Assembly (NCBI RefSeq): GCF_003018255.1
Contig: NZ_CP027441.1
DNA: 64,000 nt
Reading direction: 5' to 3' (one strand)
Origin: Escherichia coli
GTDB taxonomy: Bacteria; Pseudomonadota; Gammaproteobacteria; Enterobacterales; Enterobacteriaceae
Made by a program: the position numbers. Numbering within the stretch: position 1 is the stretch's first letter; every line of letters begins with the position of its first letter. Positions 24,001 to 30,000 of the stretch are shown here, piece after piece.

Positions 24001-27000
24001 TCCCTCCGGGGTGCTGTTTCCCGGAGCACATAATCATGAAATGGTTTTATCTCTCATCTCTTTTCTTATTCTGTCTCCCGGCGACTGCCGCCGTAAACAG
24101 TAACACACTGGATAGCTGCTTTATTCAGGCAGGAAAACGTTACTCCATCGATCCCGGACTACTGAAAGTAATTGCCCGTAAAGAAAGCAGCCTGAATCCC
24201 CGGGCCATCAATCATAACAGAAATGCCAGCGGAAAAATTATCAGCACAGATTATGGCCTGATGCAGATTAATTCCACACATATTCCCGGACTGAAAAGAA
24301 TGGGAATTATCCGAAGTGAAAATGAACTGCTCAGTAATGTTTGCCTGAATATACAGACAGGTGCATGGATCCTTGCCCGGCATTTTCAGCAGTGTGGTGT
24401 GAACTGGGAGTGTCTCGGTAGCTACAACGCCGGATTTAATAAAAATAACACTCACCGCAGAATGAAATATGCCCGGCTGATTTATGCCGCATATATGCAG
24501 GGACGTTAATAACGGAGAATACGAGCCATGTTCCTCATCATCTTACTCGTGATCTCCGCTACGCTGACCATACAGTTACTTGCCATCAGAGTGGCCGGAC
24601 ATTATCTCATGCAGGTGCATACCCTCCGGCTTCCACGTCACCTCTCCCTGCTCTGTGTTGTTCTGGCACTCACCGCCACCATTACGCACATCATCCGGGG
24701 GACAGACATTACCGGACTTTGCTTTCTGTTGCTGATGGCAGGCTGCATGACACTGATGACACTAACTGACGCAACCTCCTGCCGTCTTCCCCGTCCCTTC
24801 ACCCTCACATTCCTGATGCTGGGTGTGGCGTTTCGTTTATGGCAGGGCGATGCTGCTATTGCGCTTGCCTGTGCTCTGTTCTGGTTTCTCCTGTTATCTC
24901 TCCTGAGGCGCTACACCTCATACCGCAAGGGAGTGGAGACGCTGGGACTGGGGGACGTGTTTCTGATTGCAGGTGTGGCCATGTGGTCATCTGCCAACAG
25001 CACTCCGTGGATCATCGGAATTGCCGCCACCGGCACCATGGTCTGTATGTCGCTGTTCCCGCGCAGTAATACAAGGGCCGCTATCCCGTTCGGTCCGTTT
25101 ATCTGTGCATCACTGTACATTTTCACTTTTTTTCCTGGTGCCATTTTTCACACCGGAGGGTAACACCATGCAAAAAGACGACGATAAAGGTTTTGTTCTG
25201 TTTGAAATTCTGGCCGGACTGATTGTGATCGGTATCGCCACACCAATGATTTATTCAGAAATTGAAAACTGGCTGAATGAGCAGCTTTACCAGAGTGCTG
25301 CATATCATGCAGATGCCTACAATACCGCAGCCAGAAACTATATTGCCGACAACAATGCCCGTCTGCATAGCGGCAGCCTTCCGGCAAATTTCACGGCTGA
25401 TGATCTGATTCGTCAGGAATATCTGAAACAGGGGTTTAACCATTCTCCCTTTGGTCAGAGTTATATCACCGGTATCCGCCGTAACCAGACCACCGGGCGT
25501 CTGGAAGCCCTGACCTGCTCAACTGGAGGGCAGACAATCAAAGAAGAAGGGCTGCGTAGTGTGGCGGGTCAGTTGCCGGGGCTGGGTGGATTTATCAGCA
25601 AAAATGGAACGGCAACAGGCGCATTCGGAGCCTGGACAGATAAACCGGGAGACTACGGACTTACCTGTTCGACAGGTCACATCGCCGTCGTCATGAGCGG
25701 TGATGACCTGCAGGAAAGTGACCGTCTCTACCGTTTTCAGGTAGCAGGTCGTCCTGAACTGAATCAGATGCATACCGCAATCAATATGGGCGGGAATAAC
25801 ATAAACAACACCGGCAATATCAATGGTCAGAGTGCCACACTGAAAGGTGATATTACGAGTGAAGACGGCTGGCTAATCACCAGAAACAATAAGGGATGGA
25901 TGAATATCACACATGGTGGTGGATTCACCATGACAGACAGCCAGTGGATACGCGCGGTTAATGGCAAAGGCATCACAACCACCGGGGAAATCAAAGGCGG
26001 AAAAGTCAGTGGTGGTACAGTCCGGTCTGACGGTCGTCTTTCAACCGGGGAGTATTTACAGCTTGATAAAACAGCTACGGCAGGCACAAAGTGTGCACCG
26101 GACGGACTTGTAGGCCGCACCAGTACAGGGGCCATACTTTCGTGCCAATCCGGTATGTGGGCAGGTTTTGAATCCTACCCTGTCGGAAGCCCTATACCGT
26201 GGCCATCAGCCACCCCTCCACAAGGCTACCTGGTGATGAACGGGCAGTCATTTTCATGTTCCCGGTATCCTCAGCTTGCCCGTGCTTATCCCGGGTGTAA
26301 GCTGCCGGATTTGCGCGGTGTTTTTATCCGTGGCTGGGACAACGGACGTGGGCTGGATGGAGATCGGAACAGACATCTCCTGAGTTATCAGGCCGATCAA
26401 TCCGGTGTCTATCATGAGCGTGGGGGATGGCTGAAAGGGCATCACAGCGGTATGGCTTACTGGGCCCAGGGAAGCACAACGGAAATGCGCCCCAAAAACA
26501 TTGCCTTTAACTACATCGTCAAAGCAAGCTGATGCATTTAAGGCGTATTAACTTTTAACTTACAGCAACGTATTTTGACCCAGATCATGCTTCCCGAATA
26601 TCCCGGTTTACCTCTGTACGCTCTGAATCCTGCCGCACCATAGCCTGCTTTGCCGTCACAGACGGCAAAGCCGTTTGAGCCACTACCCCAGTTCGCATAA
26701 ACCGGTTTTCTGGAGTCTTCTTCTGCGTCATAACAGGCCGAATAATCAAAAAACAGTGCATCGCTGATATTATTCTTCCTGACACCGGATTGTTGCTGCG
26801 TGCACTGGCCCAGGCTGCTCAGCGGGGTGAACGTGTCCCCACACCAGGCGAGCCACCCGCAAACATTGATGAACGGGTCATGATTTGTCCGTTAACAAAC
26901 AGCCAGTTCATGACAAAAGCGAACAGTATTTTCATATCCTCCTCCTGAACAAATAATTTTTGTTCAAAATTAACGCTATGAGACCCTTTATGAAACACTT

Positions 27001-30000
27001 ATCCCCCCGTGCAGCCACTGCGGATAATAATCGTATCGTTACAATTGAAGACGTTTACACAATCGCATTCTCGCAACCAATTCACACCGAATCAGCGTTG
27101 GGGCAAAGGTGGATGTTGATCCATACTGGTGAATATGAAAGTGCCAGCGATGCAAAACGCTTCCTTGATCCGCTCGCCATCGGGCACTGTGCTTGCATGG
27201 TAACACCATCACCTGTTCTGGATCATGACATCTGGCTGCATATCCGCCTGCTGATGGGCGAGATAAGGGATACCAAATAAACATTCATGGCCCCAACGCA
27301 TAAAAATAACGCCGGGGACTCTGGCAGTGGCACCATTCTTTTTACATAGAGCCAATATATAAACAACTTTTCTATGATAATATCTTTATCATGTTATAAA
27401 TAATTGACCCCTCAGCAGAAAGGGCCCAAATAGAAAAAGCAAAAATCCTTATAAAAATATTCTTTACAAGCGTTCCTATATACAAACAAACTATATAAAC
27501 CAGCCAGAACAGAATGACTGCAAAAGAAACACACACGGCCCCCATAAAAATAAATGTCATCGAATCCCATGGTTTCACCAGTACAACCGGAACCATAGCT
27601 GCCAGAACAATAAGAGCAGCATTACCCAACAGCGTCTCTCGAATAATATCCCTTATAATCTCCAGTTTTTCTTTATGCTGTTTAATTTTCATATGAACCT
27701 CATTGATTTCATCCCGAAAAGGAAAAGATTATATAACGAAATACTTTCAATCTCCTGACTCCGTCTGCTCTGCAGCATAATGCCAGACCAGCGGCATGCT
27801 AAATCACGTCCTGTCCGAATCCTTTTCATTCACGCTTAAAACAGAGTTAAAAGCACTCTTGGAACACACTCGATCATAACGATCGAAATAACTCGTTTCC
27901 GTTCAGCAAACACGCTCTTTAGACTTAACATATGAACCGCACGGAGGTGAAATGAAACCCAACAGCACAGGCATTGCTGCCCGCATGATGCTCTCTATTG
28001 ACAGGGTCCGGATTTGCGAAGCTCTGCTCAATAACCGCCAGTTGCAGTCCACTCCCCTGCAGATCCGTTATCCGCAGGGTGTCAGAGAAGCACTCGGAAT
28101 AATGAGCGAGCAACTCTCCCTTTCTGTATCCGACCTGACGCGTATCCTGGTCGAAGATGCATTAACTGAAATGTTTCTCCCGGCTGAAAACATCGTTCGC
28201 CGTCTTCTCTGCCGGACAGAACACATCATGCAGGCACATGATGTCTGCGTAACAACGATGACAACGTTACTGGCTCCCTGGAATATCCGTCCTGCCGTCT
28301 TCCGTGACCCGGACAAACTCGCAGATTATCTGACAGGAGAGATGCTGACGGCTCTGGCTGACTGGTTTTATCTCAACCCGGAATGGCTGAACGGCAGGGT
28401 ACGTTATCCTTTAAGCCGTGCCGGTGAGTGGCCAGCCACACAGGATGCGTTCTGCCAGCTTATTTCAGCCAGCGATAATGTGGATATTATTATCTGGCAC
28501 AGTTTTCCTTTTGCCGGTGTTCATTCACAGGAATATTGCGGTGTACTGTTCCGCAAGAAAAAAGAAATTAATAAAGCCATCATTTATCCTGTACTTTCTT
28601 TATCACCTGTAAGAATGAATAAGGAAAAAGAAAACTGGTTTCACACTGCCCGCAATTTATATGCAAAGACATCCGTCCGGACCGTAACGCTTCGTCCGGC
28701 ACAGGCAGAATATCTGATGACAGGAAAAATATTACCTGCTGAGTTATTCAGTATACCGTTATTACCCTGGTAATAACGCAGAGAAAAAACCAATAAATTT
28801 TTAATGGCACAGTCATGTCATACCGTTGCTGTACCCAAAACACCTCAAACCAGGAAACTGAAATGATGATGAATATGCACATTACCCGAACTCTCATCGC
28901 ATCTGCTGTTTTATTTTCCTTTAATTCAACAGCCGCGACTTCATATTTTGAAGCCCGCAATGATGCAATGGGGGGAACCGGGGTAGCCTCCTCTCACTAC
29001 GGTGTGGCACCTCTGGCAAACCCGGCCCTGCTGACAAAAGCAGGTCCGGAAGATGACTTCAGTCTTCTGCTTCCGTCCGTTGGTGGGCAATTGTCCGATC
29101 CGGGTAATATCAGTGACAACGCAGACAAAATCAGTGATGACTGGAAAGCCTTTGATCGTGCCATCGACAGTCAGAGCAACGTGTCGCAGACTGCTGCACG
29201 TCTGAAGACGCGACTTCAGGACTTCCGTCACACGCATGCTGACGCACAGGTGGGAACATCTGCTGTGGCGACTCTTCCCGGTGACACCCTCGCTGCCGCT
29301 CTGATGCTGAAAAGCTACGGTACGGTCAGTGTCGACGGTAAAGTCAGTGATGACGACCTGAAGTATCTGGAAAGCATTGCAAACAGTAACGCTCAGGATG
29401 TGGATAAAGACAGACTGACCTCTCAGGCTTTTGCCCGTGCCGCACTGGTCACCGATGTGGGTATTGCTCTGGCTACTGAACTGGAAACGGCCGGACAAAA
29501 GTGGTCTCTGGGCTTCACACCAAAATTCCAGCGTGTTGACCTGTTTAACTACAACGTGCTGGTTAAAAATTACGACAGCAGCGCTTTCAAAGGCGACCGT
29601 TACCACAACACCAGAAACGGCATTAACGCTGATATCGGGGCCAGCATGGACCTGGATGACAACTGGACACTGGGTCTGGTCGCACAGAACCTGCTCCCCC
29701 GCAGTATTGAGACAAAGGAAGTGAACGGTGTCACTGAAACTTTCAGGATCCGCCCGCAGGTGACTGCCGGTGTCTCCTGGCACAACGACATGTTCACTAC
29801 AGCACTGGATGTTGACCTGACCCCGGCCAGTGGCTTCACATCAGACAGTAAACGTCAGTTTGCTGCCATTGGTGCTGAATTTAATGCCTGGAAATGGGCA
29901 CAGTTACGTGCAGGCTACCGCCAGAATCTGGCCAGCAATGATGGCAGTGCGTTCACCACCGGGCTGGGTATCTCACCATTTGATGTCGTCCATATTGATG

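Follow-up and report, generated by a model that had tools for sequence, protein, structure and literature searches.

An old 1,077-bp deletion very probably accounts for the missing rci in the pilV–traE interval of a pO113-type Escherichia coli plasmid

What has become of rci, the site-specific integrase gene expected between pilV and traE, in a 64,000-nucleotide (nt) stretch of Escherichia coli contig NZ_CP027441.1 (assembly GCF_003018255.1)? An earlier reading of this stretch, hereafter the window, had described divergent small open reading frames (ORFs) around a 21-bp inverted repeat, one of them interrupted by an in-frame TGA. Our comparison indicated that the pilV–traE interval is very probably the scar of one old deletion of 1,077 base pairs (bp), which reaches from the core of the terminal shufflon recombination site (sfx) to rci codon 336, and no evidence was counted as contradicting this. 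The loss of rci is already known, both from the report that the shufflon of plasmid pO113 is inactive because the recombinase is absent (Cottell et al. 2011, PMC3377399) and from a RefSeq flag for a partial integrase, and the finding is in that respect an ordinary one. The only new details are the exact junction within the sfx core, the size of the deletion, the identity of a stranded pilV exon, an explanation for the antisense ORF, and a remote link between a small downstream gene (ORF96) and the core of secretion ATPases.

The relic of rci was located on the plus strand. The 52 codons at 26790–26945 encode a peptide identical at 50 of 52 positions to residues 338–389 of the p135-2 Rci (BLASTP), and 98% identical to residues 337–388 of the Rci of pSTEC2018_166-c (NZ_CP075634.1, IncK2/Z; locus L007), which served as the main intact comparator. 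A tblastn search with the full Rci gave this remnant as the sole rci match in the 64 kilobases (kb). RefSeq annotation of the identical plasmid pRM10466-1 lists 26790–26948 (+) as a pseudogene, 'integrase; incomplete; missing N-terminus', and relatives that are 96–98% identical from 26783 or 26789 onwards carry an intact site-specific integrase gene (rci) of 388–389 amino acids (aa) here. Recombinase-family matches of intact Rci fall at residues 35–282, all within the deleted part, indicating that the catalytic domain is gone from the remnant. Judged from this span of family matches, the catalytic domain with the Arg-His-Arg-Tyr tetrad that defines a tyrosine recombinase is lacking. What is left is part of the extra C-terminal domain of Rci described previously (PMC11852207), and no Pfam or NCBIfam match was returned for it. 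The original prediction of decaying or rearranged coding sequence where rci would be expected was sound in that rci is missing and a rearrangement scar lies beside a shufflon remnant; the relic, however, is on the plus strand rather than the minus strand.

The breakpoints could be placed to within a few bases. Shufflon homology stops at 26792 and rci homology starts at 26789, the junction being a 4-bp microhomology, ATTG (CGGATTG versus CGTATTG). The lost 1,077 bp correspond to positions 4148–5224 of the pSTEC2018_166-c locus and comprise the outer core and left arm of the terminal sfx, 66 bp 5' of rci together with its promoter region, and rci codons 1–336; as it stands, rci-coding sequence abuts the terminal sfx CAA directly. 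An 80-bp query spanning the junction matched over its full length in 40 PLSDB plasmids, pO113 among them, the remaining hits being one-sided. Furthermore, 38 of 5,426 complete E. coli genomes matched at least 80% of the query 26500–27300, which also spans the junction. Because the junction is shared by these plasmids and genomes, the deletion is real, old and inherited, with no sequencing or assembly error involved. The junction can also be used as a clean lineage marker (40 plasmid records).

The shufflon side of the scar was compared with functional systems. In an sfx site, a 7-bp core lies between two 12-bp arms, of which the left is variable and the right conserved (PMC11852207). As in the R64-type shufflon of the IncI complex, the window holds a constant pilV part, an invertible segment (662 bp) with two alternative 3' exons, and a canonical sfx sequence (GTGCCAATCCGGTNNNTGG at 26142–26160), and the gene order pilV–shufflon–rci–traE agrees with that of relatives. 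The constant part and the alternative 3' segments expected of a functional R64-type shufflon are therefore present. Such a shufflon also has at least two sfx sites in inverted orientation, each complete in its 7-bp core and 12-bp right arm, and an adjacent intact rci. In the window the left site is complete and the right one truncated, lacking four of the seven core bases, and Rci is reduced to residues 337–388, its last 52 codons, the rest not being found by tblastn in the 64 kb. R64 itself has four segments (A–D), unlike the single segment of the window. With rci gone, one sfx core truncated and no second rci in the window, the shufflon cannot invert. It is frozen, with PilV fixed as the 454-aa form and the other 84-codon exon left unused on the minus strand.

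The identity of that stranded exon followed from the same comparison. Window positions 26131–26792 correspond, in inverted orientation, to the 662-bp segment 3501–4162 of pSTEC2018_166-c with 99.1% identity, and there the segment is flanked by canonical sfx sequences (GTGCCAATCCGGTGTCTGG and GTGCCAATCCGGTATGTGG). At the position of the terminal sfx, both 99RCEF and pSTEC2018_166-c read GTGCCAATCCGGTGTCT. The 84-aa alternative PilV C-terminus was detected by tblastn in 113 plasmids and forms the annotated end of PilV in pSTEC2018_166-c, which carries the segment in the opposite orientation to the window. Overall, pSTEC2018_166-c and the IncK/B/O plasmids (p135-2, pCT) are 99% identical to the window over the shufflon segment and 96–98% identical over the rci tail, ORF96 and the spacer between them, but unlike the window they keep an intact rci and a full terminal sfx. 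Within the pilV coding sequence, an internal sfx-like site at 26398–26412 (core GATCAA rather than GTGCCAA) forms a perfect 12-nt inverted repeat with 26781–26792, 371 nt apart, and may be a former third recombination site.

The lineage of the window was likewise evident from its closest matches. The interval 26400–27800 matches E. coli plasmid NZ_CP027372.1 at 100% identity over 1,401 bp, and pO113 (NC_007365) at 99.7%. PLSDB typing of these two records, the two examined, gave IncFIB plus IncI-gamma/K1, MOBP and MPF_I. In total, 309 plasmid records matched the interval, nearly all of them from Escherichia or Shigella and predicted to be conjugative. On these matches, the source of the window is a plasmid of the pO113 type from Shiga toxin-producing E. 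coli (STEC). Compared with pO113 (NC_007365 / AY258503) and related STEC plasmids negative for the locus of enterocyte effacement that are described as having an 'inactive shufflon', which are 99.7–100% identical here and share the identical deletion junction, no material difference was found, and the window is a member of that lineage. The features of the interval and its surroundings are collected in Table 1.

Table 1 Features in and around the pilV–traE interval of the window (aa, amino acids; nt, nucleotides; a dot marks features without strand).
Feature	Coordinates	Strand	Basis
pilV (454 aa), one C-terminal form	25168..26532	+	RefSeq coding sequence WP_001168070.1 in 100%-identical NZ_CP027372.1; ORF
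Intact sfx (GTGCCAA-TCCGGTATGTGG) marking the left boundary of the 662-bp invertible segment	26142..26160	+	Segment match to pSTEC2018_166-c
Degenerate internal sfx-like site (GATCAA-TCCGGTGTCTAT) in pilV coding sequence	26398..26412	+	
Alternative 3' exon of pilV, stranded and silent (84 codons and a stop)	26538..26792	-	tblastn; PilV C-terminus in pSTEC2018_166-c
Truncated terminal sfx: whole 12-bp right arm plus CAA (3/7 core bases), GTGC gone	26778..26792	-	
Deletion junction, ATTG microhomology, 1,077 bp lost relative to pSTEC2018_166-c	26789..26792	.	
rci pseudogene remnant, codons 337–388 plus stop	26790..26948	+	BLASTP, tblastn, RefSeq
Minus-strand ORF, 38 codons plus TGA, antisense to the rci remnant, most likely non-coding	26819..26935	-	
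21-nt inverted repeat inside the 41-nt rci–ORF96 spacer; the rci stop codon opens it	26946..26966	.	
ORF96, intact small gene (96 aa; ATG at 26978 gives 100 aa)	26990..27280	+	RefSeq WP_000681897.1
ORF106, small, conserved membrane-type protein, convergent to ORF96	27372..27692	-	RefSeq WP_000695053.1; 49% to 112-aa 99RCEF ORF
traE (273 aa), first tra-block gene past the scar	27952..28773	+	ORF; named TraE in p135-2

How the deletion arose could be explained in two ways, to which we give about even weight. Either Rci itself would have deleted its own gene, by recombination between the terminal sfx and a weakly sfx-like site within rci, or ordinary microhomology-mediated recombination would have joined the two ends at the 4-bp ATTG. 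The left breakpoint lies inside the 7-bp sfx core. The site at the rci-side breakpoint, CACGCCAGCGTATTGTTGC (L007 5210–5228), matches sfx at 11 of 19 positions, stands in direct orientation to the truncated sfx, and is among the three best of 2,298 rci positions for sfx match. A breakpoint in the core together with an sfx-like site in direct orientation on the rci side is the geometry expected from an aberrant Rci-catalysed deletion. However, the 11/19 match is inflated by the 4 bp of junction homology, and at the other positions it amounts to 7 of 15 (P ~0.06 by our estimate). Gyohda et al. reportedly worked on direct sfx repeats in 2006. Rci is described as restricted to inversions, with asymmetric sfx sites (PMC11852207), and this reported restriction counts against an Rci-made deletion. 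The breakpoint geometry nevertheless hints that an inversion-only recombinase may occasionally delete its own gene.

The minus-strand ORF of the original prediction, which was said to start at 26935, to meet an in-frame TGA after 38 codons and then to continue open over the shufflon remnant, was found exactly as described. Its ATG opens 38 codons (MKILFAFVMNWLFVNGQIMTRSSMFAGGSPGVGTRSPR), the TGA lies at 26821–26819, and the frame beyond stays open for 77 further codons to 26588, crossing the shufflon segment. The view of the TGA as an interruption did not hold, since the same 38-codon ORF and TGA occur in plasmids with an intact rci. In pSTEC2018_166-c, the 38 antisense codons differ by one substitution, the TGA is the same, and the next stop follows 13 codons on, with many thereafter. 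In the diverged lineage represented by locus L008, the TGA is retained and the ATG reads GTG. Its presence both in relatives with intact rci and in the L008 lineage indicates that the TGA is ancestral. The open codons past it come from reading the stranded pilV exon in a frame shifted by +1, not in the PilV frame, and this stretch is open only because the deletion brought shufflon DNA there. The coding strand, moreover, is settled by the 96–98% match of the plus frame to a recombinase of 388–389 aa. Read in this way, the minus-strand ORF is the antisense of the rci tail, and its TGA is the native end of an accidental ORF.

A few junction-bearing plasmids (CP027673.1, CP0612xx; H119–H125) have TGC in place of the TGA, which results in called proteins of 116 aa and 137 aa (P0018 and P0019). 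In the rci frame this change is a synonymous one, GCT to GCG, and has no effect where the gene is already a pseudogene. The two 'hypothetical proteins' called from it are an annotation artefact that is spreading through databases.

Several observations weigh against dismissing the minus strand altogether. A strong Shine-Dalgarno-like motif, AGGAGG, precedes the ATG of the antisense ORF by 5 nt, and in the diverged L008 lineage the ORF, there starting with GTG, is still open. A small overlapping gene on the minus strand is therefore conceivable. Substitution counts do not separate the strands, as the wobble positions of one frame fall on those of the other. The best surviving alternative to an accidental ORF is of this kind, namely that the 38-aa ORF is a genuine gene for a small hydrophobic protein over the 3' end of rci, with the TGA as its real stop, functional in both intact and deleted plasmids. 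The Shine-Dalgarno-like motif, the frame kept open in L008 together with a hydrophobic N-terminus, and the report of the ORF by gene callers in more than 1,000 contigs all favour it. Nevertheless, three TCC serine codons stand at the end of rci, and AGGAGG is their reverse complement; in L008, where GTG replaces ATG, the motif is weakened to AAGGGG and the first 12 residues share just five identities. The N-terminal part is absent from rci of the 99RCEF type, which ends earlier; TGC variants lengthen the ORF threefold; and a 38-codon antisense ORF is in itself unremarkable. The need to encode Rci on the opposite strand fully accounts for the conservation of the ORF, and no usable Pfam or PHROGs match was obtained for the antisense ORF. 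We consider such a gene very unlikely, and prefer the antisense of an rci tail.

Less probable again is a model built on the original reading, in which two divergent small genes share the palindrome as an operator and the one on the minus strand, coding for a secreted or membrane peptide, was pseudogenised by the TGA. The hydrophobic N-terminus with AGGAGG 5 nt 5' of the minus ATG, the TGC variants that give a called 116-aa ORF in some junction plasmids, and a promoter-like site that overlaps the palindrome would all fit it. Against this, the TGA is ancestral, its change to TGC is synonymous for Rci, and what lies beyond the TGA does not read in the PilV frame; the start codons are only 42–54 nt apart, and neither ORF had family hits. 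Nor do the two ORFs form a divergent pair in relatives, where the plus-strand ORF normally lies 41 nt 3' of rci in the same orientation and the minus-strand ORF is rci antisense. Intact homologous genes at this position in relatives had been named beforehand as the finding that would tell against the original prediction, and the pilV–rci–traE interval of relatives does carry intact rci (388–389 aa) and intact ORF96.

The palindrome itself offered little to such an operator. The 21-bp inverted repeat exists as predicted, at 26946–26966, and consists of 8-bp arms around a 5-nt loop (TGAACAAA-TAATT-TTTGTTCA), its first three bases being the rci stop codon (26946–26948); its abundance class, however, is ordinary. 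Perfect inverted repeats with 8-bp arms and loops of 3–8 nt number 33 in the window versus 6.6 in block shuffles, about one per 2 kb, so the repeat is not statistically unusual. At the DNA level, relatives read TGAATAAA (pSTEC2018_166-c), TTTGATCA (p135-2) and TGAGCAAA with a 4-nt loop (L008), and none of these changes is compensated. The palindrome was rejected as an operator, given the single-arm DNA changes in three relatives and the short distance between the start codons; a divergent pair with a shared operator likewise finds no support in a minus ORF that is antisense to rci and a palindrome that is not conserved, broken without compensation in p135-2 and altered in the two other relatives.

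In plus-strand RNA, G-U pairs preserve the stem both in pSTEC2018_166-c (-5.6 kcal/mol) and in L008, where it lies inside a larger fold of -9.6 kcal/mol. In contrast, the p135-2 change breaks the RNA stem, leaving -3.2 kcal/mol, no better than shuffles; with three variants, this comparison of RNA hairpins is too small to decide. The repeat does not resemble an intrinsic terminator, since two of its eight pairs are G-C, AAAAUU follows in place of a U tract, and it was missing from a terminator scan. An Rfam scan of 26000–28200 with E values up to 1 returned no match. Our best guess is that the palindrome is a weak intercistronic mRNA hairpin, or nothing. Setting aside the supposed TGA-interrupted secreted-peptide gene with its operator palindrome removes a false lead and leaves a precise map of a known lesion.

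The weakest alternative, that the absence of rci is an assembly artefact of a misassembled shufflon and the true plasmid has an intact rci, draws on the statement in a study of IncI2 shufflons that these are hard to assemble and that wrong assemblies may be present in public databases (PMC5430464), but it is practically negligible given the identical junction in 40 independent records from varied laboratories, years and platforms including the Sanger-era pO113, the unique, repeat-free sequence of the deleted stretch, and the literature report that the recombinase is absent (PMC3377399).

The deletion would have a consequence for conjugation. Specificity for recipients in liquid mating reportedly depends on the PilV variant (PMC11852207), and for this reason a frozen PilV adhesin would narrow the mating range of the pO113-type STEC virulence-plasmid lineage.

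Past the scar, the plus-strand ORF of 100 aa noted originally proved to be an intact gene, running from 26978 to 27280, for which RefSeq places the start at 26990 (96 aa; ORF96). Its position 41 nt 3' of rci, in the same orientation, is conserved in relatives. Its expression would now rely on transcription continuing from pilV, or else on a weak promoter-like site (26929–26957). Homologues of ORF96 fell into 14 clusters with 55–97% identity, all of those with a source name coming from E. coli. Truncated forms of 53–71 aa are among them, two of which each occur in more than 100 contigs. The pSTEC2018_166-c locus has another rci 3'-end relic (L007 5766–5852, ending in GELPANIDERVMICPLTN and a stop), which lies 3' of ORF96 and is absent from the window. 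The bracketing of ORF96 by duplicated rci ends in that plasmid suggests that an ORF96 module may have inserted into the end of rci with duplication.

ORF96 had no hit in Pfam, NCBIfam or PHROGs. Two further homologues, both short and remote (P0041 and P0044), came from an exhaustive profile search. The top hits of this hidden Markov model search were long repetitive proteins with 17–54 matched stretches and were set aside as artefacts of repeats or composition, on a reading of P0034 and P0043 and not of the two top hits. P0041 (L011 1460–1711) is encoded directly 3' of a TrbI/VirB10 gene, and the P0044 gene (L012 1746–2066) overlaps the start of a gene for a 342-aa T2SSE-family ATPase. P0041 matched the Pfam family T2SSE (PF00437) with an E value of 6.7e-4 and 18.8 bits, under the gathering cut-off of 24.9, and P0044 matched the neighbouring VirB11-like ATPase at 2e-7 from the Asp box to the His box. 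P0044 also has a Walker-A-like GKTGKGKT after the His box, in permuted order.

The profile of the ORF96 family pointed in the same direction. Its eight best PDB hits were all secretion ATPases, including CpaF (1e-4), PilT (6e-3), VirB11 (0.03) and PilU (0.13), and all of these alignments span one stretch that comprises the Asp box, Walker B and the His box. ORF96 keeps these three in order, and the His-box residues G65-H66 are invariant; the acidic positions in the Asp box and in Walker B differ from allele to allele. The Walker A P-loop (GxxGxGKT) is absent from every ORF96 allele. Alignment of the ORF96 family with TraJ and PilQ by hhalign placed the motifs as expected, without significance (probability below 1%). 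AlphaFold2 prediction of ORF96 from a 10-sequence alignment gave a mean predicted local distance difference test score (pLDDT) of 38.9, too poor for a fold search. ORF96 thus resembles the T2SSE/VirB11/CpaF/PilT ATPases (PF00437) in the alignment of its profile to these motifs, but unlike those proteins of 330–500 aa it has only 96 aa, lacks Walker A and falls below the Pfam gathering cut-off.

Selection on ORF96 differed from that on its neighbours. Between the window and L008 alleles, the ratio of nonsynonymous to synonymous substitution rates (dN/dS) was about 0.86 for ORF96, versus 0.145 for rci and 0.20 for traE in a like comparison, and seven nonsynonymous but no synonymous changes separate ORF96 from its pSTEC2018_166-c counterpart (stretches compared: window 26990–27277, L008 3001–3279, L007 5422–5709). 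The alleles look mosaic between two types. From motif content and substitution pattern, ORF96 probably derives, as a fast-evolving and fragment-like protein, from an ATPase of the VirB11/CpaF type; selection on it is relaxed or diversifying, and it is not an enzyme. It is conceivable, although we regard it as rather doubtful, that ORF96 is a live member of an undescribed family of about 80–110 aa, derived without Walker A from the VirB11/CpaF ATPase core, in conjugation or type IV secretion system loci (here after rci, and in metagenomic relatives after virB10 or overlapping the start of virB11), which could dock onto or poison hexameric TraJ or PilQ and so tune transfer or pilus activity.

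The surrounding gene order begins with pilP, a pilQ-like ATPase gene, a pilR-like gene, pilS, and genes for a lytic transglycosylase and a prepilin peptidase, followed by pilV; beyond pilV come an unannotated gap, the 96-aa hypothetical protein (+), a 106-aa hypothetical protein (-), a 273-aa protein, TraF, TraH and others. The intact relatives p135-2, EC05 p2 and pSTEC2018_166-c have, in order, pilV, the shufflon, rci (388–389 aa), the 41-nt gap, ORF96, a minus-strand membrane ORF and traE. TraE had no Pfam or NCBIfam match, and scans of ORF106 against Pfam, NCBIfam and PHROGs gave nothing usable. In comparison with the 112-aa ORF at the equivalent place of the 99RCEF plasmid, the first 26 residues of ORF106 (MKIKQHKEKLEIIRDIIRETLLGNAA) are near-identical and the remainder has diverged. 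The traF gene (28815–30065) is open in the window and annotated as intact in NZ_CP027372.1, is frameshifted according to the pRM10466-1 annotation, and is missing from the pO113 gene table, indicating that the integrity of traF varies within the lineage.

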